This document shows, in pieces, positions 521 through 55,454 of a DNA stretch of 64,000 nt. Every line of letters begins with the position of its first letter. Position 1 is the stretch's first letter. The translations under genes and the position numbers were made by a program. This DNA comes from Alphaproteobacteria bacterium. GTDB lineage: Bacteria; Pseudomonadota; Alphaproteobacteria; Rs-D84. The stretch covers positions 574 through 64,573 of the forward strand of contig JAFXFG010000031.1 of assembly GCA_017520675.1 (NCBI GenBank), in the 5' to 3' direction. The notes beneath the pieces are model-generated. The model was given only the letters and a program-made list of their open reading frames with translations, was not told where the DNA came from and ran no database searches.

Positions 521-2368
521 ATGAAACAAAATTCTACAAGACAAATGACGAATACCCAAAAGGCTGGTGATGCGGTGCGTATGGTGGCAGATGGGATAAA
601 AGATGCAAGAAAAAAATTGTCAAAATTAAGTCCAAAAAAACATTTTGAAAATGCCGGTAGGGTTTCTGGTGCTGTGTTGCTGTGGTTGATGGAATATACA
701 ATGCGCATTGCAAATGGGCTGGTGTTGGATAATTTCGCATTGCGTGCAATGGAACGCGGATTTAAAAATAAAAAGAAAGATGGATTCGCTAAAAGAAATC
801 CCGCCTTGGTATCGCATGCGCTGTACTATCTGATTCCATTGTTGGCATGGCTGGGGGTCGAAACCGTAGATTTTGCAAAAGAAAGAGTTCAAGAACGAAA
901 ACAGAAAGAAGAGGAGGAAGCACGAAAAAAAGCAATGTCCTTTGATAATTTTAAAATTAACCCAAATGTTTCGGATGAAGAGTGGGAAAAACAAATTGAT
1001 GCAATACAGCCATATGTAATCGCACATTTGTTCTTGACCGAGGGGTATGTGCGAGATTTGTACTATGATAATGGAACAAGTGGTACGAAAACAATAGGGG
1101 TAGGTTTTATTCTTGATGATGAAGTGCATCGTAAGTTTGCAAAAAAAATACTGGGACGACCAATAGTAAACGGTTTGAGTGTGTCTGTTGAAGAGGCTAG
1201 AATCTTGGCGGATGCATGGACGCGTGAAAAGATTTATCCAAAGATGAAAGAGGCTTTTAATGTGCCGATGGATGCAAAGTTGTTTATTACTTTGGTGGTG
1301 GCAGCATATAATGCAGGCGAAAGTACTTATTCGCTTAAAGGTAATTCAGGTATTCCTGTGCGTGATGCAGTTAATGCTGGAAAAACAATAGAAGAAATAA
1401 TGAATGTTTTTGTTCGGCAGTATGGGAAAGTACGCGGTACACAATGGGGCGGAATGTCAAATAAGTATTCTGTGTGCGCGTTGTATGCATTAGGGGATAT
1501 TTCTGATGATGTTATTTTAAACTGTGTGGCAGAAGCGCCGTATGAAATAAATGTTATATTAGAGCAAGATTCGGCATATTTATCGGTCTATAACCCTAAA
1601 ACAATGAATGAAGGAAATTTGCTGATTTATGACGGAGAAGAAAAAAAAGCAAGGCCTGTTGGTGTGGTTAGAATACCTAATATAGAAGAGGTTTTACAGA
1701 CACCACAGTATAGAAAAACAAAAGGAACAGAACAATTAAAGATACGTGATTATTTGATGGAACAGGAAGTAAATACAATTATGGCAGGAGAAATTTTTGA
1801 AGGCTCAACAATTGATTATTTCACAGCCCAACAGTTGGCAAATTCTGTGAAGTATGAGGTGTCTGATTCTGACAAAATTAATGAAGAAGGTGAAGAACTT
1901 TATCATAAGGAACAATATAAAGAAGCAATACAAAAATTTGAAGAAGCATTGAATGTAAATCCTGAAAATTACATTGTTTATAGTAATATATCTTTGGCTT
2001 ATTATAAAATGGGTGAACCCAAAAAAGGCGCGCGTGTAATAGAAAAGTTTATAAAATCTGAATACTTTGACAATGCGCCAGATGTAAATAAGGGCTATGT
2101 TTATTATAATTTGGCCTTGTGTTATGAAAAAATTGGTGATTCGAAAAGTAAAAGAAAGCAGAAATTTTATAAAGAGGCTAATAATGCAATCGAAAGGGCG
2201 CAGGAATATTCAGGAAACAGTTATGATGATTTAAAAAATAGAATAAATAAAAAACTGACAGATGAGGGTAAAAAAATTGCTTTTAATTCTGGAATTCAGC
2301 AAATGCGTCAGAAAAATGCAAAAAAAGATATATTGCTGTACGGTAAAGAAACAACATTTAATGCCTAA
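521..2368 (+). CDS. 615-aa Lys-rich protein with a central GH24 phage-type lysozyme-like domain and C-terminal TPR repeats
   Basis: LTEGYVRDLYYDNGTSGTKTIGVGF aligns with the P22/lambda/T4 lysozyme catalytic E...D...T-IGxGH block. The C-terminus has TPR-like repeats (AIQKFEEALNVNPENYIVYSNISLAYYKMGE; YYNLALCYEKIGD). The ATG lies 1 nt after the mucR-like stop. Confidence 0.55.
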   Translation: MKQNSTRQMTNTQKAGDAVRMVADGIKDARKKLSKLSPKKHFENAGRVSGAVLLWLMEYTMRIANGLVLDNFALRAMERGFKNKKKDGFAKRNPALVSHALYYLIPLLAWLGVETVDFAKERVQERKQKEEEEARKKAMSFDNFKINPNVSDEEWEKQIDAIQPYVIAHLFLTEGYVRDLYYDNGTSGTKTIGVGFILDDEVHRKFAKKILGRPIVNGLSVSVEEARILADAWTREKIYPKMKEAFNVPMDAKLFITLVVAAYNAGESTYSLKGNSGIPVRDAVNAGKTIEEIMNVFVRQYGKVRGTQWGGMSNKYSVCALYALGDISDDVILNCVAEAPYEINVILEQDSAYLSVYNPKTMNEGNLLIYDGEEKKARPVGVVRIPNIEEVLQTPQYRKTKGTEQLKIRDYLMEQEVNTIMAGEIFEGSTIDYFTAQQLANSVKYEVSDSDKINEEGEELYHKEQYKEAIQKFEEALNVNPENYIVYSNISLAYYKMGEPKKGARVIEKFIKSEYFDNAPDVNKGYVYYNLALCYEKIGDSKSKRKQKFYKEANNAIERAQEYSGNSYDDLKNRINKKLTDEGKKIAFNSGIQQMRQKNAKKDILLYGKETTFNA

Positions 2369-2385
2369 ATGATAAAGGGGAATTT

Positions 2386-4383
2386 ATGAAAGTCTTGGTC
2401 GATGTGCATGATAAACGTTGGAATAAATTTAAAATAGATTTTGATGAAATTGCAAATGCAGTTGTCGGAAAAAAATATGAAAATTCCGAAGTGTCTGTGA
2501 TATTGACTAATGATAAAGAAATACAGCAAATCAATAAGCAATACAGAAATATCGATAAACCAACAAATGTATTGTCGTTTGAACTGGGGGACGATATTTT
2601 GCTGGGGGATATTTTTATTTCAATTGATACTGTACAGAGAGAGGCAAATCTAGAAAAGATAACAGTTGTTGAACATACGGCGCATATGTTGGTGCATGGG
2701 GTGTTGCACTTGTTGGGATACGACCATATCAAAGATGATGAAGCAGAGATTATGGAAGAAAAAGAAACAAAAATTTTAAAAAAATTGGGTATAAAAAATC
2801 CATATGCCATTGATGATGAGTGGCAATGTGATTCTGCGGAATGTTGTCCGTGGGGTGGTGTTGTCGCGTGGATTAAAAAACTTAAAATAAAAGAAAATGG
2901 GGTTTGGCAATATTTCCTATACGCATTGTTTGGTGGGGTTGCTTCATTTGGCTTTGCGCCGTTCTATTGTTGGTGGTTGGCTGTACTGGGGATTGGTGGT
3001 GCGTATTGGTTGACAGTCAAACAAAAACAAAAGTGTGGATTTTGGCGTGCTTGGTTGCGTGTATCACCGTTTGGTGCAGTTTATGCAATATCTATGTTTT
3101 GGTGGACTTTGCATTCAATTTATGTTGTGCCAGAATTGGCAAATCAATTTGCTGTTTGGACAATCCCAGGTGTGATTGGATTAGGAATTGCAGGTGCGTT
3201 TATATTTGTATGGCCATTTGTTGTAATTTCCTGTGTGCGCAGAAATCCTGCGTATAGCGCGATTTTATTCGCGGCTGTTTGGGTGTTGGTGTTGTGGGGG
3301 CGCGAGTGGATGTTTACAGGGTTTCCATGGAATCCAATTGCAAATATATCTTTGAATTTTCCGATGTTGGCTAATTCTATGTCTTTGTGGGGCGCGTTGG
3401 GGTTGACATTTGTAATTGTTGGTGGAATTGCAACCATAGTTGAGGTTATGCGAAAGCCAAAGTCAAAGGTTGTGTGGTGGGGATTGTTGGTATTTGTGTT
3501 GTTGGGGGCTGTGGGAATGTTGTGGGGGCGGTATAATATGCAGTTGGCAACAGTGGGTGAAAGCAATAATCATAAATTAATTCGAATCGTGCAACCTGCG
3601 TTAAATCAAGCACAAAAGGCAACACATAGCAGAGAGCAGGCAATAATAAATGCAGAAGATAATATGCGGGTCTTGTTCGAATTGGCGTCCGTTGATGAAC
3701 GACCTGATTTAATTGTTTTTCCTGAAACATCATATCCTTTTACGGTTTTGAAAGGGGATATAATGCCTTTGTCACAGGCGTTGGGCACAGATGTTATTGT
3801 CGGTGCAAATTTCTTGGATAATGGCAAGGTTTATAATGCAATGCTGTTCGCAGATAGATATGGTCAAATAAATCATATATACAGCAAGTCGCATTTGGTG
3901 CCGTTTGGTGAATATAGTCCATTGGGGATTTTGCCAAGTCCTGTAAATTTATCAGCAGGTCAGGGGGCAGAATTAGTCAATGTAAATGATTTGTTGGTTG
4001 CACCTGCGATATGCTATGAAATCATCTTTTCTGATTCTGTGATTCCAGATGGCAAAAAAACACCAAGTGCAATTGTGAATATTACCAATGATAATTGGTT
4101 TGGTAATACCCCAGGTACTTATCAACATCTGGATATGGTGCGCAGATATGCAATCGAATCTGGGGTGCCGGTGGTGCGTGCAAATTATTCGGGTATTAGT
4201 GCGTTTGTCTTGTCTGATGGTAATGTGTTGTCGCAATTGATGATTGGTGATTCTGGGGTTCTGGATGGCTTTGTGTGGGGTGCACATAATACACCATACA
4301 GAATGCTGGGGATGAATTTTTGGATGATTGTGATATTGGTATTTTCTGGATTGTGTTTGTTTGTGTTGCAACGAAGAGATTAA
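2386..4383 (+). CDS. ybeY-lnt: Fusion protein: YbeY endoribonuclease domain (N-terminal ~150 aa) joined to apolipoprotein N-acyltransferase Lnt
   Basis: The N-terminus carries the HGVLHLLGYDH YbeY zinc motif. It continues without a stop into Lnt-type transmembrane helices and a CN-hydrolase domain (ICYEIIFSD, NDNWFG). This is one uninterrupted 665-codon ORF. Confidence 0.75.
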   Translation: MKVLVDVHDKRWNKFKIDFDEIANAVVGKKYENSEVSVILTNDKEIQQINKQYRNIDKPTNVLSFELGDDILLGDIFISIDTVQREANLEKITVVEHTAHMLVHGVLHLLGYDHIKDDEAEIMEEKETKILKKLGIKNPYAIDDEWQCDSAECCPWGGVVAWIKKLKIKENGVWQYFLYALFGGVASFGFAPFYCWWLAVLGIGGAYWLTVKQKQKCGFWRAWLRVSPFGAVYAISMFWWTLHSIYVVPELANQFAVWTIPGVIGLGIAGAFIFVWPFVVISCVRRNPAYSAILFAAVWVLVLWGREWMFTGFPWNPIANISLNFPMLANSMSLWGALGLTFVIVGGIATIVEVMRKPKSKVVWWGLLVFVLLGAVGMLWGRYNMQLATVGESNNHKLIRIVQPALNQAQKATHSREQAIINAEDNMRVLFELASVDERPDLIVFPETSYPFTVLKGDIMPLSQALGTDVIVGANFLDNGKVYNAMLFADRYGQINHIYSKSHLVPFGEYSPLGILPSPVNLSAGQGAELVNVNDLLVAPAICYEIIFSDSVIPDGKKTPSAIVNITNDNWFGNTPGTYQHLDMVRRYAIESGVPVVRANYSGISAFVLSDGNVLSQLMIGDSGVLDGFVWGAHNTPYRMLGMNFWMIVILVFSGLCLFVLQRRD

Positions 4384-40750: not shown

Positions 40751-41959
40751 ATGTTCCGTAAGATATTGATTTTTGCGATGTTTGCAACTGCCGCGGGGTA
40801 TTGTTTCGCATCTGATGATTTGCAACAAATTGTAACCTCAGAGGTTTTTTATGATAACGAAGTTGTCCCGTACGAGGATACTGTTGTTGTGCAGGAACAG
40901 ATTCCAACATGGCCTTTGATTGGGTCAGAGGCGGATGTTGAGGTCGGTTGTGAGGGAAATCCAAAGGTTAAACGACAGGATGATAATATTCGCATTGTGT
41001 CAAAGGTTGGTGATGATTTAGTTGTTGAAAATAACTTTAATATTGGGGCACGTGGTGAATTTACAGGCTGGTCTGGTGGTGCGAATATGTTGCATGGTAC
41101 GCAGATTCCTGTTGGTTTTGATGATGAGTGTTTGTCTAATACGGAAATGCCATTATTGCATCGCGAGGTTTTAGAAGACGATGGTGGAAATGTTTTGGCT
41201 GTGTCGCGCAGTGGACGCAAGGTGTGTGGTAGTGCAGATGCTTATAACGCGTTTTCGCTAAGGAATAATATGAATTTTAATGCGAAAAAAGGAACTGATG
41301 TTAAAAAAGCGGTTTTGGATAATGGAAACGCAGTTGTTTCTTCTGATGGAAGTAATGTAGTTATTTCTATGGCTGATGGTAATGTGGTTGTGTCTGAAAG
41401 TGGTGCGGTTTCTGCAAATGGAACAAGTCAAATTACACAGGATGGTGGTGATGTTGTCGCAACATCTGCAGATGGCAGTGTTACTGTATCCGTTGCAGAA
41501 AATGGTAGAATTGTTGTTACTTCCTATGAAAGTGAGGTTGTGGTAGAAGAGGGGACTATTGTTGCGGTTAGTGGTAATAGCGAGGTTTTAGAAGAAGAAA
41601 CAGAGAATTATGCAAGTGCGTCTGATGCCTTGGCAAATGTGCCAGAGGAAGAAATTGCAGTGGATGTTTCTGCAGATGCTGAGGCGCCAAAAGTATTGAA
41701 AGATCAGGTGCGTTCTTGGGTTGTTGTAAATGGGCAGACATTAAGAGAGGTCTTGCAATCGTGGGCGGATAAAGAAGGTTGGGATTTGGTTTGGACAACC
41801 GCGCGCGAATATCCAATTGAGGCAAGCGCAGTATTTAAAGGACGCTTTGTTGATGTAGCGTCGGCTTTGGTTCGTAATTTTGGACGTGCAACACCTGTAC
41901 CATATGCAAAGTTCTATAAAGGGAATAGGGTTTTGGTGGTTTCTACGGTTGATGAATAG
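40751..41959 (+). CDS. Secreted protein with a beta-rich repeat region and a TcpQ-like C-terminal domain (secretin-associated)
   Basis: Signal peptide MFRKILIFAMFATAAGYCFA and a VV/SG-rich repeat segment. The C-terminus WVVVNGQTLREVLQSWADKEGWDLVWTTAREYPIEASAVFKGRFVDVASALVRNF fits the TcpQ C-terminal/PFL_4695-type pattern. Confidence 0.5.
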   Translation: MFRKILIFAMFATAAGYCFASDDLQQIVTSEVFYDNEVVPYEDTVVVQEQIPTWPLIGSEADVEVGCEGNPKVKRQDDNIRIVSKVGDDLVVENNFNIGARGEFTGWSGGANMLHGTQIPVGFDDECLSNTEMPLLHREVLEDDGGNVLAVSRSGRKVCGSADAYNAFSLRNNMNFNAKKGTDVKKAVLDNGNAVVSSDGSNVVISMADGNVVVSESGAVSANGTSQITQDGGDVVATSADGSVTVSVAENGRIVVTSYESEVVVEEGTIVAVSGNSEVLEEETENYASASDALANVPEEEIAVDVSADAEAPKVLKDQVRSWVVVNGQTLREVLQSWADKEGWDLVWTTAREYPIEASAVFKGRFVDVASALVRNFGRATPVPYAKFYKGNRVLVVSTVDE

Positions 41960-41989: not shown

Positions 41990-43618
41990 ATGATGAAAAC
42001 ATTAAAGATTTTTGCTGTTTGTGTTTTGGGGGCTGTCGCAGTTGCAGGATGCGCAAAGCGTGAGTCTGCCAAGGTAGCGGCAACCGTTGACCAAGACTTT
42101 GTTAATGCATATGATGCGTTTGAAATGGCAAAAAATCCACGTGCCAAGGTCGCAAGCGGTGATACTGTTTCTGTGTCCGAAGGTGTTTGGTTGGGAAATA
42201 AATCTGTGGTGCTGGAACATCGTAATAATTTGCCTGCGAAGTTCGAAACTGATACTGGGGTAACTATTTTGTTGAATGAGCCTGTTTCATTGCAGGTCTT
42301 GGCAAATGATATTTATTCAATTACGGGAATTCCTGTGAAAATTGATGGTCAGGTTTCGTATGATAAACTTAGAAATCAGGTTAATGTTGCATATACAGGA
42401 AAGTTGTCTGGGTTGTTATCTCAGGTCGCGACTGATTTAGATTTGTTGTGGTACTATGATAAGAATTCAATTGTGTTCTATGAAACGGAAACGCGTACAT
42501 TTACTTTGTATGCCTTGGGGACAGAGGTTGCATATCAAACATCTGTTTCGACAGATAATTCTAATGAGGTTTCATTGCAGTCTACATTGAAGGAATGGGA
42601 CGAGGTTGAAAATGCTATTTCGTCTATCTTGGGAAAAAGTAGTAATGCCGATTTTACCGTTTCGCGCAGTCTGGGGACAATTACAGTAACTGCATCGCCA
42701 TCTGTGTTGGCGCGTGTTGGTGAATATATCGAAAGACAGAATAAACGGTTAAGTCAATTGGTAACAATTGATGTTAAGGTTTTACAGGTAACTTTGTCTA
42801 ATGATACTGCATTTGGTTTGAATTTGGCAGCGGCGATTAATTCTACATCTGGGTTGAATATTGTTGCAAATCCGAAAAATAATTTGGCTTCGACTGAGGC
42901 AAGCTCTATGAATATTGCGGTGTTATCTAATGCGGTTTCTGCGTTAACTGGTGCCACACATATGGAAGGTGGAACAATGGTAGAAGGTGCATATACACAA
43001 GATCAGATTATGAACGGTTCGTTGTCTGGTGTTGCAGGCAGTGCTGCGTTGATAGAGGCTTTGGCAAAGCAGGGTAAGGTTTCGTTGGTAACAAATGTTG
43101 GTGTAACCACACGTTCGAATCGTGTTGCGCCGGTTAGCAATACACGCACAACTGGCTATATAAAACGATTCGAATCACGAAATTTTACAACGGTTGAATC
43201 AAGTACTGTTGATCAGGATGATTTAGAGACAGGGTTTACAATGCAGTTGTTGCCGAATGTCCTAGAAAATGGAAAAATTTTGTTGCTGTTCCGTATGTCG
43301 GTGCGTGAATTATTGCGTATGTCAACACAGACAATTGGCGAGGTTACTTTGCAGTTGCCAGAGGTTGAAGAACGCAGTTTTATGCAGGAAATTATTATGG
43401 AATCAGGTCAAATGTTAGTATTATCTGGGTTTGAAAAGCAGACAAATGAAGATACACGTTATGGCTTGGGGAATCCAGATTTTATGGCGTTGTCTGGGTC
43501 GCGTGAATCGTCATCTACGCGTGAAGTGTTGGTGGTTATCTTGACACCACAGGTACTGGTTAGCCCAATGGATGTTGAACGTGGAATTCAACAAAATTGG
43601 GGCGCACCATTGAATTAA
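41990..43618 (+). CDS. Lipoprotein secretin (pilus/secretion-type outer-membrane channel; TcpC/PilN-like)
   Basis: Lipobox AVAGC. Secretin C-domain hallmarks: LVTIDVKVLQV, ETGFTMQLLPNV, a Gly-rich LGNPDFMALSG and a terminal REVLVVILTPQVL. Confidence 0.7.
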   Translation: MMKTLKIFAVCVLGAVAVAGCAKRESAKVAATVDQDFVNAYDAFEMAKNPRAKVASGDTVSVSEGVWLGNKSVVLEHRNNLPAKFETDTGVTILLNEPVSLQVLANDIYSITGIPVKIDGQVSYDKLRNQVNVAYTGKLSGLLSQVATDLDLLWYYDKNSIVFYETETRTFTLYALGTEVAYQTSVSTDNSNEVSLQSTLKEWDEVENAISSILGKSSNADFTVSRSLGTITVTASPSVLARVGEYIERQNKRLSQLVTIDVKVLQVTLSNDTAFGLNLAAAINSTSGLNIVANPKNNLASTEASSMNIAVLSNAVSALTGATHMEGGTMVEGAYTQDQIMNGSLSGVAGSAALIEALAKQGKVSLVTNVGVTTRSNRVAPVSNTRTTGYIKRFESRNFTTVESSTVDQDDLETGFTMQLLPNVLENGKILLLFRMSVRELLRMSTQTIGEVTLQLPEVEERSFMQEIIMESGQMLVLSGFEKQTNEDTRYGLGNPDFMALSGSRESSSTREVLVVILTPQVLVSPMDVERGIQQNWGAPLN

Positions 43619-44997: not shown

Positions 44998-45059
44998 GTC
45001 TTTTGTCTTTATTTTTGGCGCTTTTTGTGGTATAATGCCCAATAATGAGGAAAGAGAAT

Positions 45060-45923
45060 ATGAAAAAATCATTTCTTTTGTTTTTCGGTATGTTTTGTTT
45101 GTTTGTTTCTGATGCAGGTGCTGCAAGGCCGTCTATGTCAGAGAAAATGATGGCTGCACCAAGGGCAGGGGTGGCATCTAAAAATCAGATTTCTGCCGCT
45201 GCAACATTAACCGCAGACGAGGCTGTTGTTAGTAAAGCAAGTCTTAAAGCGGGTGATGTGAATGCTAATTTAGAAATTAATCCTGATGAAATGCTGTCTG
45301 TTAAAAAGAATATGCGTGAAAAGGAAAGATTGGCTTGCATTAGCAATAATATCGGTATAAGTAATACTTTTGTTTGGGCATCACGATATAGTGATTCTTC
45401 TAGTTATGTGTCAATGGTTGAAGATGTTGAAGAGCCTGAGAATAATACTTGTTTCGTAAAGACTGCGTTGAAGTCAAATGATCCAAAAATTAATGTTTCA
45501 AATGTGCCGACAAGGTATTTTGAAATGGGGCAGGTGGTTACTTGTGGCGAATGGGCAGATTATGAGGCTTTGAAGCAACAGATATTGGATGCAAAAAAGA
45601 AGGGGCGTACGCTGGGGACTATTGCTGCGGTTGTCGGTGGGGCAGGTGTTGGTGTCGGCGCGATGGAATTGTTTGGAAACAAGGTAATCGGTGGTAAGGT
45701 CGAGGGGCAATATAATGAAAATTTGTCTGATGCACAATTGTTGCGTTCGCAATTGTTGACTTTGCAAAAGGAAGATGCAGCGAAATATAATGAATTTACA
45801 ACAAAGTTGGGACAGTTAAGAAAAAAGTGTACTGAGTTTGAAACCTCTTATAAAAATCAAACAGAACCGGCAGACTGCACTAAGTATAAGGATGTGTTTC
45901 CTTTGCTGGATTCGATGAAATAG
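45060..45923 (+). CDS. Secreted protein; short paralog of the giant Cys-rich protein, sharing its N- and C-terminal modules
   Basis: Signal peptide plus ARP...GVAS, and a C-terminal YFEMGQVVTCGEW...GGAGVGVGAMELFGNKVIGGKVEG aligning with YFALGDTFTCGSW...LGTGGAFLGNKIADGKIGG of the 49933-53175 protein. RBS GAGGAAAG. Confidence 0.6.
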   Translation: MKKSFLLFFGMFCLFVSDAGAARPSMSEKMMAAPRAGVASKNQISAAATLTADEAVVSKASLKAGDVNANLEINPDEMLSVKKNMREKERLACISNNIGISNTFVWASRYSDSSSYVSMVEDVEEPENNTCFVKTALKSNDPKINVSNVPTRYFEMGQVVTCGEWADYEALKQQILDAKKKGRTLGTIAAVVGGAGVGVGAMELFGNKVIGGKVEGQYNENLSDAQLLRSQLLTLQKEDAAKYNEFTTKLGQLRKKCTEFETSYKNQTEPADCTKYKDVFPLLDSMK

Positions 45924-47391: not shown

Positions 47392-48678
47392 ATGCAGGCA
47401 CAAACAGCGGCAAATACACAAATGACAAACTTGGAAAATATCAAGGGGGCCATTGCCGCAAAAATGGATTCTGCATCTTTTACTTCTTGGATTGCACCTT
47501 TGACCATGGATGTTGTTGATGGAAATTTGGTATTGTGTGCACAAAATCAATTCTCGGCTGATTTTATTACAAGTGTTCATAAGGCTGTTTTAGCTGATGT
47601 AGCAGCAGAATTTGGTTTGGGGTTGGATATCGTTGTTCGTAACAGTGCAACACGTGCAACTGCATCAATTGCAAATGATAATCAGGCACAGGTATATGCA
47701 CCAGTTGTAAAGACTGTTGCGGATTCTGTTAATTTTGATAGTTTTGTTACATCTGATGAAAATGCATTTGTTGTATGTGCATGCAAAAAATTGGCAACAG
47801 GAACTGCGCCTTTTACACAGTTGTTTATTTATGGGGCTGCTGGTTGTGGTAAATCTTTGTTGGCCGATTGTATCGCAGGTGCATGTACAGGTCGTGTTGT
47901 AAAAATGTCTGGCGCACAATTTGTTTCTGAATTTACACGTTCTTTGAAAGAACATAATGTTTTTGCATTTAAAGATTTCTGCCGTAACTGCAATTTGTTT
48001 ATTTTGGACGATGTTCAGGCGTTGGCTGGTAAAAAGGCATCAACCGAAGAATTCTTGCAATTGATTGTTGATTTGCGTAATGCAGGTAAAAATGTTGTTT
48101 TGACTGCGGATGCAGCCCCCAGCAATTTGACAGGATTTGACCGTCATTCTCAGGGTGTTTTGGCATCTGGATTGGTTGCAGATGTTGCAGTACCAAACGC
48201 GCATGTTAAAACTGTTATCTTGCAACGCGCAGGTGTCAAGGCAGATGTTGCAACTGCTCTGGCTACACGCGTCGCAAATGATGGCCACTTGATTGCAGGT
48301 GTTGCGACAAAAATCAAAACATATGTTGACTTGATGGGTGCAGATGTTGATATTGATGTTGCAAAACGTCTGTTGGCAGATACATTAACAGCCGTTAAAA
48401 CACCAAACGCGATGGTTCGTGATATGTGCGAAAAATTAGGTGTTTCATATGATGCAGTTTGTGGAAATGGGCGCAGTCGCAACTTGGTTTTTGCACGTCA
48501 GATAATGATGGTTGTATTAAAGAATGCGACATCTTTGTCCTTGGCGGAAATCGGTAATTTTGTTGGTGGTCGTGATCATGCAACAGTTTTGTACGCGGTA
48601 AAGCAGATTGAAAAACAAAAGGCAACAGACTTGGTGTTGGCAGCGCAGATAGAACAATTTATCGCAGACTGCAAATAA
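47392..48678 (+). CDS. dnaA: Chromosomal replication initiator DnaA
   Basis: AAA+ Walker A GAAGCGKS, box VII and a C-terminal DNA-binding domain (VVLKNATSLSLAEIGNFVGGRDHATVLYA). Start chosen at MQAQTAAN with RBS AAGGAAAGGAG. Confidence 0.9.
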   Translation: MQAQTAANTQMTNLENIKGAIAAKMDSASFTSWIAPLTMDVVDGNLVLCAQNQFSADFITSVHKAVLADVAAEFGLGLDIVVRNSATRATASIANDNQAQVYAPVVKTVADSVNFDSFVTSDENAFVVCACKKLATGTAPFTQLFIYGAAGCGKSLLADCIAGACTGRVVKMSGAQFVSEFTRSLKEHNVFAFKDFCRNCNLFILDDVQALAGKKASTEEFLQLIVDLRNAGKNVVLTADAAPSNLTGFDRHSQGVLASGLVADVAVPNAHVKTVILQRAGVKADVATALATRVANDGHLIAGVATKIKTYVDLMGADVDIDVAKRLLADTLTAVKTPNAMVRDMCEKLGVSYDAVCGNGRSRNLVFARQIMMVVLKNATSLSLAEIGNFVGGRDHATVLYAVKQIEKQKATDLVLAAQIEQFIADCK

Positions 48679-48696
48679 AAATTAAATATAATGGTC

Positions 48697-48768
48697 TATC
48701 TAAATGCGGTGCCGGAAACTCATGTATCATTTGTACACATCGTTTCCGGCACTGCGTTTATCTAAACC
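48697..48768. repeat. Imperfect inverted repeat / hairpin downstream of dnaA
   Basis: TATCTAAATGCGGTGCCGGAAAC ... GTTTCCGGCACTGCGTTTATCTAAA. A related GCGTT..TTATCTAAATC segment recurs at about 48845-48875. Confidence 0.6.
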
Positions 48769-48919
48769 ATTCTATTTAATTTTATAAAATTAACCATAAT
48801 AATTCATCTAAAACCAATCCTGCCAACTTATGTAACTTCTGTACACTGCGTTGTCGGGATTGATTTTATCTAAATCATTATAATTAATTTTAACCCCTGC
48901 AAGGGGCGGGTAAGAATAA

Positions 48920-48962
48920 GTCCCTGCGGGGCAATGGATACCCGCCTGCGCGGGTATGACGA
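48920..48962 (+). repeat. Solo copy of a 43-bp palindrome-containing repeat
   Basis: GTCCCTGCGGGGCAATGGATACCCGCCTGCGCGGGTATGACGA. Confidence 0.8.
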
Positions 48963-49061
48963 CGAACGAGGGGGGGACGAAGGGTTGGGGTGTGTGTGAA
49001 AAGCCACATCGATGATAAAGAGTTGAATATTTATAATTTTTGTGGGGTGCTCACATACACA

Positions 49062-49103
49062 CGTCATTCCCGCGCAGGCGGGAATCCACTGCCCCGCAGG
49101 GAC
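49062..49103 (-). repeat. Inverted copy of the 43-bp repeat, abutting the 3' end of the GIY-YIG gene
   Basis: CGTCATTCCCGCGCAGGCGGGAATCCACTGCCCCGCAGGGAC with a perfect ATTCCC-N8-GGGAAT core. Confidence 0.8.
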
Positions 49104-49105
49104 CT

Positions 49106-49420
49106 TTATTCGTTGTTATAACCGTTTTCAGATAATACATCTGGGTATAAATCATTCCAATCTGGATTTTTTTGAATAATTAAGCGATATTTCCAGTTTC
49201 GTTGCCATTTTTTTAATTGGCGTTCGCGCAGAACCATTTCTTTTATTGAATCGTGCCATTCATAATAAACCAGATTGTTGATATTGTATTTAGAAGTAAA
49301 GCCTGGGATGATTTTATTTTTATGTTGCCAAATACGTCCAACTAAATCGGTGGTGGAACCGATGTACAATGTTCCCATTGGGCCGGAAGATAAGATATAA
49401 ACATAACCGCCTGATTTCAT
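49106..49420 (-). CDS. Small GIY-YIG nuclease-family protein (COG2827/YhbQ-like)
   Basis: GYVYILSSGPMGTLYIGSTTDLVGRIWQHK...YYE is a GIY-YIG signature. The gene is bracketed by inverted copies of the 43-bp repeat. Confidence 0.75.
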   Translation of the reverse strand: MKSGGYVYILSSGPMGTLYIGSTTDLVGRIWQHKNKIIPGFTSKYNINNLVYYEWHDSIKEMVLRERQLKKWQRNWKYRLIIQKNPDWNDLYPDVLSENGYNNE

Positions 49421-49458
49421 AGTGCCTAATTATAATGCACAAATAAAAAATATCAATA

Positions 49459-49900
49459 TGTCCCTGCGGGGCAATGGATACCCGCCTGCGCGGGTATGAC
49501 GAGAGTGTAAGGGCGGGGCCCGATACGCGGGTATGACGAAGAGACGGGGGTGGGGTGTTGGGTGTTTAATATGTCCCTGCGGGGCAATGGATACCCGCCT
49601 GCGCGGGTATGACGAGAGCGTAAGGGCGGGGCCCGATACGCGGGGGCGATGAGGGCTGAGTGTGTTGGGTGTTTAATAAGTCCCTGCGGGGCAATGGATT
49701 CCTGCCTGCGCAGGAATGACGATGAACGAGGACGAGGCCTGATACAGGAATGACGAGTGTGTGAGTGGGCGCGATGCGCGGGGGCGATGAGGGCTGAGTG
49801 TGTTGGGTGTTTAATATGTCCCTGCGGGGCAATGGATACCCGCTGCGCGGGTATGACGAATGTGTGAGTGGTGGGGAATTAAAAATCCCCCAATTGCTTG
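49459..49900 (+). repeat. Tandem array of four copies of the 43-bp repeat with 107-138-bp periods and partially conserved inter-repeat sequence (not CRISPR)
   Basis: Copies start at 49459, 49573, 49680 and 49818. The spacers share GGGTGTTTAATA and CGGGTATGACGA sub-repeats. Confidence 0.8.
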
Positions 49901-49932: not shown

Positions 49933-52900
49933 CTATTCCGACATCGATGTCGAAATCATATCGCCATATGTACCGACTTCGTCAGCACCGATAAAGCAAC
50001 GGATTTTCGACCCGATATTGTCCATAAATTCTTGATAGGCTTCTTGTTCAGCTGAATCAAGTTTTGTATTATGGGCATCTTTGACAATGTGATATGCGGC
50101 CAAACCACCCGCCAATGCGGTGCCAGCACCAACAATCGTTGCACCACCCCATTTTTGGAACCAGCCATCTTTTGCATCAGTGTTTGTGAACTTTTCGCAC
50201 TGTTCTTTTATTTTTGCTAATTCGGTGTACGCTTTGCCGGTTTTAGTTTTTTGTGTTTCTATGACTATTGTGCTTCCATCGGTGTCAAGAAGGTCGTCGT
50301 GTTTAAACTCCAGTGCCTCACGAGCATTTGATATCATGGTGTTCGCACTGAGCTGTGTCATGCCAGATGGCAATTCCTGTGCACTTTTTACAATGCTTTC
50401 AAAGGCGGATATTGCGTCTTTAGCATTCTTGAGCGCAGTGTTTAGTGCTGGTTCTGTTAATTGCTGTGTAGAACTACCATTTTTCCATTGTTCAAACATA
50501 TTCAGTGCGGCCTGGGCATCTGTTTTGCAAGAATTGATGTTGTTGATGATTTTCTTGGAACGGTTGTTCCCGTTCAAACCACCAATTTTACCGTCGGCAA
50601 TCTTGTTGCCCAGGAATGCACCGCCGGTACCCAATGTAACTGCAGATGCGGCAGTTGCCCAGAATTTTTGACGACGTGCTTTGTCGGTGGCTTTGCCGTC
50701 TTTGTCTTCCAGACCGGTGGCAACACGTGCTGCCTGGCCGGCTGCATCAGCCAATGCCTCTAAATCAGCAGATGATAACCATGAACCACAGGTAAATGTA
50801 TCACCCAATGCAAAGTATGCAGTTGACCATGAAGCGTTATTTTTTATTGCTTCTTGGATATATTTATCGTTGGACTGCAATGTTACACGCAGGCGACAGA
50901 ATGAACCATATAAATCATTGCTGGCCACGAATTGGTTCGTGTCAAGACCAGACATCGCATAGTTCTTTGGTACATCTTTGCCTTTTAGTTTTACCCACAT
51001 GTATGTAGAGCCGTTGTCTTTGTTGCCTATTATGCCACCGGCATTTGATGACAGGCACATATTTTGTTCTTTGGTTAATTTTGCGTTATATTTTGCCTGG
51101 GCTTCTTTTTCAATGTCATAGACCAAATCCTTGAACAAACTGTTCGCAACCTGTGTTTGGCGATATGTGTCAACTGATACATATACAGGTTGATCAAAGA
51201 TGTTGCCTGTTTCATCCATTTTATAACATATACCTTCGACACCGGATTTGTTTGTGCAGATTTCTTGACCGTTTTCGTCAACTTTTTTTACACCTTCTAC
51301 GGCGGTCATTTTGCTTGCACTGCCGGCATCATACCAACCAGAGCGTACAGAGTCAGCGGTTTCACCACCGTTGGTCCCCCATGTGTTGGCTAGATTGTTA
51401 TTTTGGTTAATATTGAATTTTGCGGTTTCAATTGCCAGATGTTCTGCACAGACATCAGAGTCTTTGACGGTGTTAACACATAATCCCAGTATGATTGTAT
51501 AGTCAAGTACACCACCGACCTTGTTCATTGATTTATCAAATGCAGCGTCGCCAGTGCTGGTCAAACTGGACATTACGTCTGTACGATTGCGATAGCAATT
51601 GACATAGTCAGGACCGCACATTGATCTGACGCAACTGCTTGCCAATGTTTGACATTGTTTTTTCATTTGTGCAATTGCTGCATCGTTGTATGAATTGTTC
51701 AATGTTGCGTCCAGATTTGCAACAACCCCAATTGGATCAAGTTTGGTGTCTGCGTGTGGGAACAGGGTTGTAAACGCGTCCCCTTGGTTGTATGTATAGT
51801 TAAAGCCACCAGATGTTGTCGGGTTTTGCGCCGCATAAATACAGTTTGGATCGGTGTTCACAACAGATGTGCAACCACGTTGAATTTCTTGGTATGTGTT
51901 GTCGCCATTTATTCCGATACCACTGGCCAATTTATAGCATGCAGCGCCAGAACCACCACCGCATACGCGCATCGCGCAAGAGCGGATTGTCTGTGTGCAC
52001 TTATCCTTGGCATCAGTATCAAATTTATTTACTAGGTCAGAAATCTTGGACATCATTCCAGAATTCATACGGGTAGAATATGCCTGAGAAAAGACATCTT
52101 CTTGGTTGAATTCATCGCGCAATTCAGAATTGGTTGGCATTTTGCCGTCGCCAATAAATGTTGCATAGCAATATTTATTTTGACCAATTGTATCCATACA
52201 TTCGCCACGAATGTATCTGTTGATGTCCGATTTGCTTAATGCTTCGGAAAGGGTGTCAGATAATTGTGTGGTTGTGCCTTTTAATATCGATTCAACGGTT
52301 GCAACAAGGGCACCTGGGGTGTTCTCGTAACATTTGTATGGATTCTTGGTGCAGGCATTTAATATACATTGATCAACAACACGATAACAGGTCGATACTG
52401 CATTTATTGCCGCCAATGTTGCGCCGTCTGCAATCATTGTGCCAACACGACTGCTGGTTTCAGGGTCAACAGTGCGTGATGCAGTGCCGAATAGTTCTTT
52501 TAAGCCATCGCTTTGACAGCGGGCCAGTACGGAATCGCAACTGACGCGTTGTTTTTTGAATTCTGAATTTGATGTGCATAGTTCAAAATCAGAACCACAA
52601 ACATTTTCGCGATTTAAACATGTGGTGTAACGACGCACGCAATCAGATGTGTTGTACATATTTGATATTGCACCAGCAGTAATTAACTGACCCAGTGCGC
52701 TGTCGTCGTCTGGATATGTGTAGTCAGTGATTTCGTCAAATTCATTTTTGCTGGCAACCTGAGATAAATTGTCCATATTGGTTGTGCCAAATAACTTTTG
52801 AATTCCACCAGTTGAACATTGGTACAGTGTGCCAATGCATTGTGGCATCTTGGCATGGAATAGAACCTTGGTTGTACATTCTTCAAAGTTTGAACCACAG

Positions 52901-53175
52901 TTTTCTGGGGCCTTGATACAGGTCAGATATTCGTTTACGCATTTTGTGTCGTCTAGTAGTGAAGATGTTGTTGCAGCAGGTAATGTGGCGCTGTTGTTGT
53001 TCGCAGCAGCATTAGCCAATGCAGATGCCATCGTGGGCATACGACGACCAGATGCAGCAATGCTGGTAACCTTGCCTGTTGGCATTATGCCAGGACGCGC
53101 AGTTACACCATGTGCAACAGATACAATGCTGAATGCAAAGATTAAACTGAATGTATGCTTTAAAAATGATGACAT
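49933..53175 (-). CDS. Giant (1080 aa) secreted Cys-rich protein, probably surface-associated
   Basis: RBS AGGAG before the ATG at 53175. Signal peptide MSSFLKHTFSLIFAFSIVSVAHG. Repeated Cys modules (C..YLTCIKAPENCGSNFEECT; CVRRYTTCLNRENVCGSDFELCT). The C-terminal module is shared with the 45060-45923 paralog. Confidence 0.6.
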   Translation of the reverse strand: MSSFLKHTFSLIFAFSIVSVAHGVTARPGIMPTGKVTSIAASGRRMPTMASALANAAANNNSATLPAATTSSLLDDTKCVNEYLTCIKAPENCGSNFEECTTKVLFHAKMPQCIGTLYQCSTGGIQKLFGTTNMDNLSQVASKNEFDEITDYTYPDDDSALGQLITAGAISNMYNTSDCVRRYTTCLNRENVCGSDFELCTSNSEFKKQRVSCDSVLARCQSDGLKELFGTASRTVDPETSSRVGTMIADGATLAAINAVSTCYRVVDQCILNACTKNPYKCYENTPGALVATVESILKGTTTQLSDTLSEALSKSDINRYIRGECMDTIGQNKYCYATFIGDGKMPTNSELRDEFNQEDVFSQAYSTRMNSGMMSKISDLVNKFDTDAKDKCTQTIRSCAMRVCGGGSGAACYKLASGIGINGDNTYQEIQRGCTSVVNTDPNCIYAAQNPTTSGGFNYTYNQGDAFTTLFPHADTKLDPIGVVANLDATLNNSYNDAAIAQMKKQCQTLASSCVRSMCGPDYVNCYRNRTDVMSSLTSTGDAAFDKSMNKVGGVLDYTIILGLCVNTVKDSDVCAEHLAIETAKFNINQNNNLANTWGTNGGETADSVRSGWYDAGSASKMTAVEGVKKVDENGQEICTNKSGVEGICYKMDETGNIFDQPVYVSVDTYRQTQVANSLFKDLVYDIEKEAQAKYNAKLTKEQNMCLSSNAGGIIGNKDNGSTYMWVKLKGKDVPKNYAMSGLDTNQFVASNDLYGSFCRLRVTLQSNDKYIQEAIKNNASWSTAYFALGDTFTCGSWLSSADLEALADAAGQAARVATGLEDKDGKATDKARRQKFWATAASAVTLGTGGAFLGNKIADGKIGGLNGNNRSKKIINNINSCKTDAQAALNMFEQWKNGSSTQQLTEPALNTALKNAKDAISAFESIVKSAQELPSGMTQLSANTMISNAREALEFKHDDLLDTDGSTIVIETQKTKTGKAYTELAKIKEQCEKFTNTDAKDGWFQKWGGATIVGAGTALAGGLAAYHIVKDAHNTKLDSAEQEAYQEFMDNIGSKIRCFIGADEVGTYGDMISTSMSE

Positions 53176-53252
53176 TCCCAACTCCTGTTTTTTCTAGTTT
53201 TATTATTTTATTTTAACATAATTTGACGGTATTAAAAAGCAAAAAGTTGTTG

Positions 53253-53990
53253 TTAAAATAAAATGTTTATTTGTGCGCCAACTTGGATGTCGTCGCTTTC
53301 GAATTCATAGTCAAAATGGCCCGAATATTGCGTGCGACCAAATTGACGAATTAGTTTAAAATGCAGCCATTCTTGGTCATAATTTTGGCCGGTAATACGG
53401 TCTTGATTTGTTGCGACGCGTATCGTTAGACCTGTGCCAAAGCGCCAGTCTGGGGCAATTCTGAAATATGCCTGGGGGATAAAATCAAGAAATGCCATGC
53501 CACGCAAATCGTCAAATATCCAACTGGATTTAATCGTGCCAGATAATGTCATCCCAGCCCATTGACGACCAAAACGAAGTCCTGCGTAGTATGTAGAGTC
53601 CGCATATTCTGGGGTGCGAACATGACTGCTGCCACCGAATTTAAAACCGAATATTACATCTGATATGATGCCAGAATTGTTGTCGTTCGCGGTTGCAATA
53701 CGATAAAATCCACCAAGGTCTGTTGATGCAAAGCCATCTTCACTGCCGTTAAAATCGTGTTGATAATGAATGTTTAAACCAACAGATAAACGATCGTTAA
53801 AGCCGTATGATAATGACTGGCCTGCGCGAAGAATATGATCCCAGTATGTTAGTGTGGTTTTTGATAATATGCTGGATTTTGGTTGTATGTATAGTGGGTC
53901 AGATGTGTCGTGTTCAAGTATGTTTGAATGACCAAGTGTTGGTAGTAGTAATGATAATGCAATAAAGATTCTTGATAAAAATTTGTGCAT
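53253..53990 (-). CDS. Outer-membrane beta-barrel protein (possibly MipA/OmpV-like)
   Basis: Signal peptide MHKFLSRIFIALSLLLPTLGHS, about 245 aa, alternating beta strands and a C-terminal INILF. Confidence 0.55.
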   Translation of the reverse strand: MHKFLSRIFIALSLLLPTLGHSNILEHDTSDPLYIQPKSSILSKTTLTYWDHILRAGQSLSYGFNDRLSVGLNIHYQHDFNGSEDGFASTDLGGFYRIATANDNNSGIISDVIFGFKFGGSSHVRTPEYADSTYYAGLRFGRQWAGMTLSGTIKSSWIFDDLRGMAFLDFIPQAYFRIAPDWRFGTGLTIRVATNQDRITGQNYDQEWLHFKLIRQFGRTQYSGHFDYEFESDDIQVGAQINILF

Positions 53991-54066: not shown

Positions 54067-55365
54067 TTAGAACTGGAATATTGCCTGTACACCGATTGTT
54101 GTTTCGGCAATGTTATCCAATTTTACTGTCCCGATGTTTGTTAATTGTTCCAGTGGGAATACTTCACCATTAGCTGGATTTTCGGCTTCGATATGAGGTT
54201 CCATCCAGTATAGGTCAAGATTTTTGCTGTTCGCACTGTCATAGAATGCGGTTTTAGCATATAGGTTCAACGCAAACCAATCGTTTGGTTGCCAGCCAAT
54301 TGCACCCTTGATAGATGCCTGGTTGTGCCAGTCGTAATGACCAAATGTACCCTCTAGGTTTAGGGTCCAATCTTCGTTCAGAACACTGAACATACCAAGA
54401 CCACCTTCGATGTATATGGCATTGCTGCTGCCGACCTGATAGGGAATATAGAATGTTGCAGAATCGCCGTTTTCGTCAGAACCGGTTATGCCGTTGCCAT
54501 AAGAATTGCCTTCTAAATCAAGATACCAGCCACGTACCAATCCATAAATTGTGGATTTAGATACTTTGTAGCCGGCCTTGATATCCAACAAGAAATTGTT
54601 TGATATGTCTTTCTGATGTTGGAAGTATGCAGATGCGGTTGCAATCCATTTGTCGTTGTCGATAAAACGCCATTGTGCGCCAAGCCCAAATATATTCAGT
54701 CCGTTGTCGTCCATTGTGTCCGCTGGGGCACCGTTATCGTATTCAAACTTGTAATCGTTCATATCATATTCAAGTAAGCCAACCAATGCGATTTGGTCGT
54801 TGATACCATAACTGAAATGTTCTTTGGCTGAAATTTGATTGGATTTCCATTTGCCACCAACACCATCAAGTGCTAAGGAAAATGCACTGCCACTGCCGAT
54901 TTCGCGAATTGGTAGTGTTTGATTGATTACAAAGTCATATGAACTGGTTGTATAACCAAGGTCAGTAATAGAACCAAATTTTTCGCCCAATGGTTGAAAG
55001 AATGGGTGTGCAAGGTAGTATTTGCGACGCATCTTGGTTGTTACGGTTTCAGAACGGGTCTTGCGTACTGTGCTTTTTGTCGCAGTTGCCGCAGGGGATT
55101 GGGCGCCAGTATATGATTTATACATTGTATTGCGATTTGCAGGCTTTACATAATACATGTCGCCATTGTTTTTTGTTTCGTATGTCTTGGTTGTTGTACG
55201 GGTTGTATATTTTTTGTAATTTACACTGGTTTGTTCACGTGTCGCAGGGGCATCCGATAAGTTCGCAGTTGTTCCAGCGCGTGTGCCGACATTGGTCGCA
55301 GCATTCGTGGCAGTTGTGCCAAGAATAGCCAGTGCACTAAAAAATAATGGTAATGTTCGTTTCAT
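54067..55365 (-). CDS. Outer-membrane beta-barrel protein (porin-like) with a Thr/Lys-rich N-terminal extension
   Basis: RBS AAGGAG, a signal peptide and a C-terminal GVQAIFQF. Confidence 0.55.
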   Translation of the reverse strand: MKRTLPLFFSALAILGTTATNAATNVGTRAGTTANLSDAPATREQTSVNYKKYTTRTTTKTYETKNNGDMYYVKPANRNTMYKSYTGAQSPAATATKSTVRKTRSETVTTKMRRKYYLAHPFFQPLGEKFGSITDLGYTTSSYDFVINQTLPIREIGSGSAFSLALDGVGGKWKSNQISAKEHFSYGINDQIALVGLLEYDMNDYKFEYDNGAPADTMDDNGLNIFGLGAQWRFIDNDKWIATASAYFQHQKDISNNFLLDIKAGYKVSKSTIYGLVRGWYLDLEGNSYGNGITGSDENGDSATFYIPYQVGSSNAIYIEGGLGMFSVLNEDWTLNLEGTFGHYDWHNQASIKGAIGWQPNDWFALNLYAKTAFYDSANSKNLDLYWMEPHIEAENPANGEVFPLEQLTNIGTVKLDNIAETTIGVQAIFQF

Positions 55366-55454
55366 TTTAATTCTCCTTTTGTGTGGTATTATAACATAAA
55401 TAATTGCTGTAAAAAAGAAAAAACAGCGCGGATTGCGCGCTGAGTATAGTGTTC

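Follow-up and report, generated by a model that had tools for sequence, protein, structure and literature searches.

Surface proteins which combine a conserved frame with a recombining hypervariable region are represented by Msp2/P44 of Anaplasma, by PilE of Neisseria and by flagellin with its central domain. Cysteine (Cys)-rich proteins of the bacterial envelope include chlamydial OmcB and TraN of F-like conjugation, the latter being an outer membrane (OM) mating-pair stabilisation protein with a variable, receptor-specific region. Here, we analyse the gene of a Cys-rich protein of 1080 amino acids (aa) from an uncultured alphaproteobacterium of the order Rs-D84, which lies on a stretch of 64,000 nucleotides (nt), in the following called the window (assembly GCA_017520675.1, contig JAFXFG010000031.1, positions 574 to 64,573). 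An original prediction made from this stretch had regarded the product as a secreted protein with repeated Cys modules, probably a surface adhesin or antigen of a reduced genome. We find that the 1080-aa protein is a mosaic of a conserved body and an exchanged, diversifying cassette. With a probability of about one half, we propose it to be a lineage-specific, Sec-exported, disulfide-rich envelope protein exposing this recombining variable domain for contact with a partner or host or as an antigen.

Two further groups of proteins are relevant for the comparison. OM lipoproteins with a transmembrane glycine zipper, i.e. SlyB, YfgH and YcfJ, are a described group (bioRxiv 10.64898/2025.12.22.696046), and TcpF of Vibrio cholerae and CofJ of enterotoxigenic Escherichia coli are secreted partners of type IVb pili carrying an N-terminal type IVb pilus (T4bP) secretion signal (PMC9565799). 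Bacteria of Rs-D84/Enterousia are widespread in the guts of ruminants, humans, poultry and rodents and are presumed to live off other cells (PMC12306168). They have genomes of less than 1 Mb, in agreement with the reduced genome assumed originally, lack biosynthetic pathways, respiration and standard transporters and are predicted by the authors to depend on a partner organism; the lineage encodes many hypothetical membrane proteins, suggested as possible contact mediators, and retains peptidoglycan and rod-shape genes (PMC12306168).

Results

The C-terminal part contains an exchanged and diversifying cassette

The protein is organised as follows, confidence of the predicted structures being given as predicted local distance difference test (pLDDT) and hydrophobicity on the Kyte-Doolittle (KD) scale:

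49933..53175, minus strand: coding sequence of the 1080-aa Cys-rich protein, ATG at 53175-53173, stop codon at 49933-49935
53182..53186, minus strand: AGGAG ribosome-binding site read from the sequence, 6-nt spacer to the ATG
53110..53175, minus strand: signal peptide, residues 1-22, n-h-c layout, putative cleavage after AHG
52960..53109, minus strand: Cys-free N-terminal peptide, residues 23-72, probably flexible, motifs TARP(S/G) and RRMPTM
52666..52959, minus strand: six-Cys module A1, residues 73-170 (C79, C86, C93, C100, C113, C120), missing from a distant family branch
52396..52665, minus strand: six-Cys module A2, residues 171-260 (C179...C220), duplicate of A1 according to BLASTP and hhalign
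51376..52395, minus strand: helical region, residues 261-600, three Cx6Cx4Cx6-7CY + Cx9C units, mostly pLDDT 80-92
51076..51375, minus strand: less conserved linker, residues 601-700, short beta-hairpins and a Cx9C pair (C640, C650)
50668..51075, minus strand: beta-rich domain, residues 701-836, three Cys (C707, C760, C796), common to a small paralog
50560..50667, minus strand: G1, weakly hydrophobic Gly-rich segment of GxxxG type, residues 837-872, KD 1.19, 27% Gly, no Cys
50173..50559, minus strand: hypervariable cassette of residues 873-1001, Cys number even (here C883 and C993), predicted to form a four-helix bundle, pLDDT ~90
50071..50172, minus strand: G2, second Gly-rich hydrophobic segment, residues 1002-1035, KD 1.51
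49936..50070, minus strand: conserved C-terminal tail, residues 1036-1080, one Cys (C1060), motif C(F/Y)(I/V)G.DEVG.YGD

Comparison with the near-identical strain L091, in which neighbouring genes have a synonymous divergence (dS) of 0.05-0.11, delimits the cassette sharply. The DNA is 98.3% identical up to residue 872, cannot be aligned at residues 873-1001 (window 50174-50562) and is 93% identical from residue 1002 on. The proportion of nonsynonymous differences (pN) does not exceed 0.006 over residues 1-800 and reaches 0.60 in residues 871-1000, where synonymous differences (pS) are saturated, the flanks showing a raised dS of 0.44 and 0.28. The divergent strain L092, with a dS of 1.1-1.6 in the neighbouring genes, has a cassette differing from that of the window by a dS of 0.09. 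The ratio of nonsynonymous to synonymous divergence (dN/dS), which the original prediction had proposed to compare between strains, is 1.84 for the cassette against L092 and 1.34 against L090, and lies between 0.04 and 0.3 for residues 73-800 of the body, indicating purifying selection. In its ratio of nonsynonymous to synonymous changes, the cassette significantly exceeds the body (Fisher p=0.003 and 2.8e-11).

The same pattern is found across the family, for which all counts of Cys residues and cassettes refer to 120 proteins. In 178 pairs of these proteins, the bodies are more than 90% identical and the cassettes less than 30%; at a threshold of at least 40% identity, the cassettes, 98-278 aa in length, fall into 54 types and the body into one. 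The 1080-aa protein is 70% identical to its counterpart in L006, although neighbouring proteins are 86-99.6% identical, a discrepancy explained by the codon-level comparisons showing a mosaic protein. Silent donor cassettes were found neither in the 64-kb window nor, for 80 species, at a distance of up to 10 kb from the gene. Consequently, the variation looks allelic between strains and transferred via homologous recombination at the conserved flanks.

With Msp2/P44, PilE and flagellin the protein shares conserved flanks, a sharply bounded hypervariable block, an inheritance decoupled from the genome phylogeny and an elevated dN/dS. Silent donor copies, which belong to the gene-conversion systems of antigenic variation (pilE/pilS, msp2 and vlsE type), were not found within the limits just given, and fold and family of the protein are unrelated to these surface proteins. 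In kind, it thus resembles known surface proteins having a conserved frame and a recombining hypervariable region, its architecture being undescribed. The adhesin or antigen proposed originally is thus partly supported: the antigen-like part, which recombines and shows a dN/dS of at least 1, is the discrete C-terminal cassette, the Cys modules forming a conserved scaffold.

A conserved body joined to a sharply bounded recombining module would also fit a polymorphic toxin similar to those of contact-dependent inhibition (CDI) or Rhs systems, in which the variable cassette is toxic and is accompanied by a cognate immunity gene. We consider this scarcely credible here, as the variable module is internal and followed by the conserved G2 segment and tail (residues 1036-1080, 70% conserved), and as the helical bundle has no toxin-domain match in Pfam or by Foldseek. 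Moreover, no small co-varying gene is found downstream, where the gene content differs between species and consists of repeats and a GIY-YIG gene in the window.

The body is exported, conserved and restricted to one order

The open reading frame (ORF) with a strong ribosome-binding site and the signal peptide described in the original prediction are both borne out: ORF 49933-53175 and the AGGAG at a distance of 6 nt are read directly from the sequence, and the N-terminus has the n-h-c layout MSSFLKHTFSLIFAFSIVSVAHG/VTARP with a 19-residue KD hydrophobicity of 1.77, which is kept throughout the family as ...AYA/VTARPS. In the peptide following the predicted cleavage site, T25, A26, R27, R45, P47 and T48 are invariant in the family alignment, and residues 1-72 have a pLDDT below 50 in the AlphaFold2 full-length model. 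The sequence TAR(P/S) occurs 77 times directly after the signal peptide compared to twice in shuffled sequences, and is present in this position only in the 1080-aa family and the small paralog. An identical 1080-aa protein is encoded on seven metagenome contigs originating from several ruminant-gut samples. Because of this identity and the purifying selection on the body (dN/dS 0.04-0.3), we regard the gene as intact and not as a pseudogene.

A word-indexed search recovered more than 812 homologs, all of which originate from alphaproteobacterial metagenome-assembled genomes (MAGs) of gut samples. The 120 best are 51-93% identical and 1033-1222 aa long, and all are unnamed or called "hypothetical". 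A scan of one genome per GTDB species revealed a relative in at least 222 genomes. Their titles name Candidatus (Ca.) Enterousia, uncultured Alphaproteobacteria or Rickettsiales, mostly the first two, and gut samples of ruminants, humans, chickens, rabbits and mice as sources. An exhaustive search with a hidden Markov model (HMM) of 1.84 billion cluster representatives resulted in 264 matches at E<=0.001. In a rare distant branch, to which a MAG named "Rickettsiales bacterium" belongs, identity is down to 25-41% and module A1 is missing. As judged from these searches, the family is restricted to the uncultured order Rs-D84/Ca. Enterousia.

The richness in Cys and their regular spacing, emphasised originally, are evident from the 38 Cys of the protein. 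Within residues 73-836, which evolve slowly, 35 Cys are near-invariant. In an alignment of 46 relatives, column identity amounts to 70-84% over most of residues 81-800 and to 70% in the last 40 residues, dropping to 12-16% in residues 881-1000. Modules A1 and A2, each of about 90-100 aa, arose by genuine duplication (BLASTP E=1e-14; hhalign E=7e-19 with a probability of 99.1%), and the Cys of A2 are invariant even among relatives with 25-30% identity. The two copies of C..Y.TC....EN.CGS.FE.CT noted before are real and located at residues 79-101 and 179-201, the spacing being 100 aa instead of the reported ~110 aa. The Cys modules emphasised originally are the most conserved part of the protein and not the variable one, with Cys invariant across the order. 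The three Cx6Cx4Cx6-7CY + Cx9C units further downstream, i.e. C263-336, C393-445 and C508-576, in each of which the Cx9C pair follows about 45 aa after the four-Cys part, have a common spacing, their homology as repeats being marginal (hhalign E=0.014-0.07). At these values, homology of the three B-type units could not be demonstrated.

Cysteine parity and two Gly-rich segments suggest the topology

The Cys residues follow a strict numerical rule among the 120 proteins. The cassette contains 2, 4, 6, 8 or 10 Cys, the number being even in 119/120. For the ectodomain (residues 73-836), the count is 35 or 37 and is odd in 119/120. As the tail (1036-1080) has exactly one Cys in 120/120, the sum of ectodomain and tail is even in 119/120. 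No Cys is present in the N-terminal linker (23-72; 120/120), in G1 (837-872; 119/120) and in G2 (1002-1035; 120/120). From this parity we infer that the Cys are paired as disulfides, which would place cassette, ectodomain and tail all outside the cytoplasm. The odd number in the ectodomain together with the single Cys of the tail suggests that C1060 forms a bond with the odd ectodomain Cys.

A signal peptide and two hydrophobic segments would by default correspond to an inner-membrane protein of the ordinary type, spanning the membrane twice, with the Cys-rich domain in the periplasm and the variable loop in the cytoplasm. The Cys parity argues strongly against this topology, since a loop with 2-10 Cys, even in 119/120, fits disulfides rather than a location in the cytoplasm. 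Furthermore, the hydrophobicity of G1 (KD 1.19) is too low and its Gly content too high for a standard inner-membrane helix, and a hypervariability with dN/dS of at least 1 is unusual for a cytoplasmic loop, making an inner-membrane protein of this kind very improbable.

The 35 near-invariant Cys and the very strong conservation of the body throughout the order could alternatively point to a disulfide-cross-linked envelope lattice protein resembling chlamydial OmcB, which would give stiffness to the envelope of a bacterium with a reduced genome and in which the cassette would be a tolerated loop. OmcB is likewise a large, Sec-exported, Cys-rich envelope protein of obligately host-dependent bacteria with reduced genomes. 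A lattice would also be in line with the small paralog, of which one of five mature Cys is unpaired and could bond between molecules, and with other Cys-rich secreted proteins (clusters 10 and 11) recurring beside the gene. We nevertheless judge a lattice improbable. The Pfam scan found no homology to OmcB, and the balanced Cys number indicates that the bonds are satisfied within one molecule. The lineage retains peptidoglycan and rod-shape genes (PMC12306168), the window itself encoding an M23/LysM peptidase and a lysozyme-like protein. The exchange of a hypervariable cassette across divergent genomes together with dN/dS of at least 1 points to variation driven by interaction instead of a passive loop.

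G1 and G2 are full of GxxxG repeats and contain 16-27% Gly, with best 19-residue KD values of 1.19 and 1.51. If both segments are joined by removing the cassette, those of two family members can be aligned to the entire Gly-zipper_Omp profile (E=3.5e-4) and the entire Gly-zipper 2TM profile (E=0.0026), which comprise ~43-46 residues, at scores below the curated cut-offs. One family member was automatically named YcfJ by the Joint Genome Institute (JGI). The protein resembles the OM proteins with two-transmembrane (2TM) glycine zippers (SlyB, YcfJ, YfgH and the Rickettsia 17-kDa antigen; PF05433, PF13488) in the paired Gly/Ala-rich GxxxG helices. These are, however, small lipoproteins forming a tight hairpin, whereas in the 1080-aa protein the helices are parted by a variable domain of 98-278 aa and carry a Cys-rich domain of 760 aa. 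A lipobox is absent, the mature N-terminus being VTARP... and residues 23-72 being free of Cys in 120/120 proteins.

A C-terminus resembling G2 and the tail (...KIRCFIGADEVGTYGDMISTSM) of the 1080-aa protein was observed in a 913-aa coiled-coil protein of L006 (14013-16754, minus strand), which ends in a Gly-rich hydrophobic segment and ...GIGCYVGGQVVADYGDEFTVGM (BLAST E 0.08). An HMM of the tail did not recover this protein at E<=1e-3. A C-terminal anchoring or sorting module common to both proteins is possible but unproven.

Structure prediction and relation to known families

No family could be assigned to the 1080-aa protein. The best Pfam match, Lambda_Kil, reaches 16 bits at a cut-off of 27.6, and the best NCBIfam match 15.9 bits at a cut-off of 445; nine diverse relatives likewise gave nothing above threshold in these family scans. 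The full-length AlphaFold2 model based on 46 sequences is mostly helical with a mean pLDDT of 63.8 and of ~90 for residues 871-1000. A second model of residues 73-830, calculated from 94 sequences including the distant branch, reaches a pLDDT of 75.7, most of its first 450 residues lying at 80-92. Foldseek searches against the PDB retrieved only generic four-helix bundles for the C-terminal bundle of the full model (best E=0.19) and nothing for the ectodomain model (best E=0.69, probability 0.08), and a search of a viral structure library yielded only noise. The structure prediction envisaged originally and the fold search thus agree with the original statement that the family is not recognised. 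A periplasmic enzyme, which would have spoken for a different function, was not among the relatives found in the family and PDB searches. By these sequence and fold comparisons, the family is unannotated and without detectable relatives.

Two candidate relationships were rejected. The family profile searched against all PDB sequences matched XaxA over residues 847-1033 (E=0.024, 15 bits, bias 4.8). Only the Gly-rich helix is confidently aligned in this match, and Foldseek retrieved no toxin of the XaxA/YaxA/ClyA type. A layout similar to viral class I fusion proteins, with ectodomain, Gly/Ala-rich peptide, helical bundle and anchor, was dropped as structural support was not found.

The XaxA match bears on the idea of a membrane-inserting or pore-forming effector, in which G1 and G2 would be latent helices entering the membrane of a partner for nutrient uptake or fusion. 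Glycine zippers are typical of channel formers. The organism lacks standard transporters and is predicted to take metabolites from other cells (PMC12306168). The low score, the bias and the confinement of the match to the Gly-rich helix, the lack of a fold match to a toxin or viral fusion protein by Foldseek, and the conserved tail with its one Cys, which suggests a fixed, disulfide-locked anchor instead of a deployable hairpin, make such an effector quite improbable.

Neighbouring genes and a possible link to a type IVb pilus

The features outside of the gene which are relevant to its genomic context are:

53253..53990, minus strand: gene of a 245-aa outer-membrane protein (OMP)-like protein directly upstream, probably co-transcribed, DUF3187 at E=0.022 only
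54067..55365, minus strand: gene of a 432-aa OMP-like protein, a clade-wide conserved hypothetical adjoining the 1080-aa gene only in the sub-lineage of the window
55424..55442, minus strand: hairpin resembling a terminator, with a T-run after it, located upstream of the 432-aa gene, from a consensus scan only
40751-41959, plus strand: TcpQ-domain protein, Pfam TcpQ E=5e-19
41990-43618, plus strand: PilN-type type IVb pilus secretin, Secretin 2.4e-13; TIGR02520 2e-71, below the curated cut-off
45045..45923, plus strand: 292-aa small paralog with signal peptide and ARPS, three-Cys beta domain, Gly-rich segment and helical tail with a Cys pair

The 1080-aa gene is the last of three genes on the same strand separated by gaps of 76-77 nt, between which the consensus scan detected no terminator-like hairpin on their strand; the hairpin at 55424-55442 probably marks the start of this three-gene transcription unit. 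The two upstream genes had been described as outer-membrane beta-barrel genes. Their coordinates were correct, and both proteins have signal peptides, no Cys, 13-15% aromatic residues, C-termini with terminal-Phe beta-signals (...IGVQAIFQF and ...VGAQINILF) and a beta-type hydrophobic moment exceeding the alpha-type one, like the OMP_b-brl protein of the window. Homology to a known barrel family was not found: Pfam and NCBIfam gave nothing above threshold, sequence and profile searches of the PDB were empty, and the 873 homologs all lack Pfam domains and names. A flank of OMP genes is not a general association either, the linkage being confined to the sub-lineage of the window; in L001, the neighbours are non-homologous.

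In about 65 of 80 species, the 1080-aa gene follows a conserved block with prepilin-like genes. The block begins with VirD4, an OmpA-like gene, a small pilin, DnaX and a DUF4167 gene on the opposite strand, continues with three paralogous proteins of 400-450 aa with prepilin motifs (e.g. ENG/NMLVELLL, G/NMLVE...), and closes with a Zn-ribbon/transmembrane (TM) protein, a secreted protein of 153 aa and an RluA-like gene. In L001 (4083-8959), the three paralogs are free of Cys and are followed by an MJ0042-type Zn-ribbon/TM protein and the 153-aa secreted protein, without any Pfam family; the three paralogs may represent large minor pilins of a type IVb-like system. About 12 of the 80 loci have lost the linkage, among them that of the window, in which no homologs of the pilin-like cluster were found. 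The window does encode the TcpQ-domain protein and the secretin listed above, which are located 1.4 kb from the small paralog and ~6 kb from the 1080-aa gene; type IV pili are not mentioned for this order in the genome description of Rs-D84 (PMC12306168). Between the window and L006, the small paralog shows an identity of 43% compared to 86-99.6% for the flanking genes, and its N-terminal linker is the most variable part. A distant homolog has a prepilin peptidase gene two genes upstream.

These neighbourhoods allow an explanation, compatible with an exposed cassette, in which the protein would be carried as cargo by a type IVb pilus or act as a partner at its tip, similar to TcpF/CofJ or PilY1. 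The TARPS...RRMPTM peptide would dock on the large minor pilins and the PilN-type secretin would export the protein, which would be released or held at the tip to make contact with a partner. In addition to the linkage with the prepilin-like cluster and, a few genes further upstream, the small pilin gene, the family-specific motif is placed exactly as the T4bP secretion signal of TcpF and CofJ, i.e. in a clade-specific flexible peptide right after the cleavage site. Known T4bP signals need aromatic residues (PMC9565799), and TARPS...RRMPTM lacks this key residue type. With 1080 aa, the protein is 3-4 times larger than the soluble TcpF and CofJ, has two hydrophobic, anchor-like segments and shows no similarity to them in sequence or fold. 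Moreover, an RluA-like housekeeping gene separates the pilin-like genes from the 1080-aa gene, the linkage is lost in the loci mentioned, reduced genomes can keep synteny without functional coupling, and the matches on which the pilin assignments are based do not reach the threshold (N_methyl E=0.006-0.04). Taken together, we consider a pilus cargo or tip partner rather unlikely, a link to the pilus as such being a serious, albeit unproven possibility.

The prepilin-like block and its VirD4 gene also allow a comparison with TraN. Both proteins are large and Sec-exported, contain many conserved Cys and combine a conserved scaffold with a discrete variable region, which is presumed to set partner specificity. 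TraN occurs in genomes with pilus or type IV secretion system genes, and a VirD4 gene is found near the 1080-aa gene in most species. In contrast to TraN, the 1080-aa gene is located outside of a tra operon, and a helical Cys-stapled fold with glycine-zipper-like flanks is not a feature of TraN. At E<=1, the TraN family was not among the Pfam matches of the 1080-aa protein.

On the other side of the 1080-aa gene, the repeat array reported originally is present at ~48915-49875. It consists of GC-rich repeats with four 77-nt units and inverted arms of 42-47 nt being 89-93% complementary, which bracket a 104-aa GIY-YIG gene (49106-49420, minus strand). Metagenome contigs encoding the identical 1080-aa protein end at these repeats, and a homologous GIY-YIG gene lies directly 3' of the 1080-aa gene in L017, L018, L020, L035, L069 and L090. 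Repeats and GIY-YIG gene could constitute a mobile element at a synteny breakpoint beside the hypervariable 3' end. In L091, a phage-type integrase and small ORFs (1806-3143) replace the region upstream of the AMP-ligase gene, which indicates a strain-specific insertion close to the locus.

Further envelope genes recur 3' of the 1080-aa gene in L023, L027, L029, L034, L039, L044, L048, L053 and others. These belong to cluster 10 (secreted proteins with ~20 Cys, often as tandem duplicates), cluster 11 (secreted proteins with 13 Cys) and cluster 12 (OMP-like, 26/26 ending in Phe).

Elsewhere in the window, two direct repeats of ~107 nt follow immediately after the dnaA stop codon (48678-48892), each being palindromic with arms of 42-43 nt and a 22-nt spacer. 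Beside dnaA, at ~49 kb, gene orientation converges, with mostly plus-strand genes to the left and mostly minus-strand genes to the right, and the GC skew falls from ~0.25 to ~0.07 with unchanged sign. At 2386-4383 (plus strand), a YbeY endoribonuclease and an apolipoprotein N-acyltransferase (LNT_N + CN_hydrolase) are fused in one ORF. The fusion is conserved in a distant relative (L093, 7893-9860).

Discussion

Our data support a model according to which the 1080-aa protein is exported via its signal peptide, the cleavage of which would leave a short conserved flexible peptide (TARPS...RRMPTM) ahead of the main body. The body would form a mostly alpha-helical ectodomain of ~760 residues stiffened by ~17 disulfides and composed of the two duplicated six-Cys modules, the three four-Cys + Cx9C units and the small beta domain. 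The glycine-zipper-like helices of G1 and G2 may form a hairpin in a membrane, most likely the OM, the turn of which would bear the disulfide-stapled helical bundle of 98-278 residues as the sole freely varying part. A bond of the tail Cys to the odd ectodomain Cys would fix ectodomain and tail on one side and thereby the cassette on the other. In the most economical model, the conserved body and the tail would be periplasmic and the variable bundle exposed. Homologous recombination at the conserved G1 and G2 flanks would swap the cassette between strains, followed by its diversification, and the cassette may act as a ligand or antigen meeting a variable partner, such as a receptor of the host or of a partner cell, an antibody or a phage.

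Several points weigh against this model and are the reason for our estimate of about one half. Alpha-helical hairpins spanning an outer membrane are rare, and both Gly-rich segments have a pLDDT below 50 in the AlphaFold2 model. The scores of the joined G1 and G2 segments are below the curated cut-offs (P0016, 20.9 bits versus 25; P0089, 18.1 bits versus 24.2), and the G1 and G2 segments of the window protein itself match no glycine-zipper model (PF05433, PF13488), neither joined nor in the full-length protein. The localisation is deduced from the sequence and the disulfides from the Cys parity; the lack of respiratory chains in the lineage (PMC12306168) raises the question how 38 Cys would be oxidised. 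The conserved 760-aa body has no assigned activity. Finally, neither of the cassette dN/dS values exceeds 1 significantly when taken individually (binomial p=0.13 and 0.27), so relaxed constraint combined with recombination could also account for its divergence.

A more specific version of the exposed-cassette model assumes that a glycine-zipper hairpin crosses the OM and displays the recombining bundle, held by the periplasmic disulfide-rich body and the locked tail, and that it serves, together with a type IVb pilus, as the partner- or host-recognition device of the partner-dependent Enterousia. This version is speculative and we regard it as clearly unlikely in its entirety. If true, such an OM hairpin would represent a new mode by which diderm cells present a variable domain.

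As a summary, the combination of a Cys-stapled helical ectodomain with a variable bundle bracketed by glycine-zipper-like segments is an architecture not previously described. The partner or receptor might be sought with antibodies or tagged cassettes, strains might be tracked by cassette typing, and the conserved body could be employed as a lineage marker or target. For the biology of this lineage, it is of importance that a gene of 3.2 kb is kept in at least 222 species, few other genes bearing such a clear sign of interaction with a variable counterpart outside the cell.

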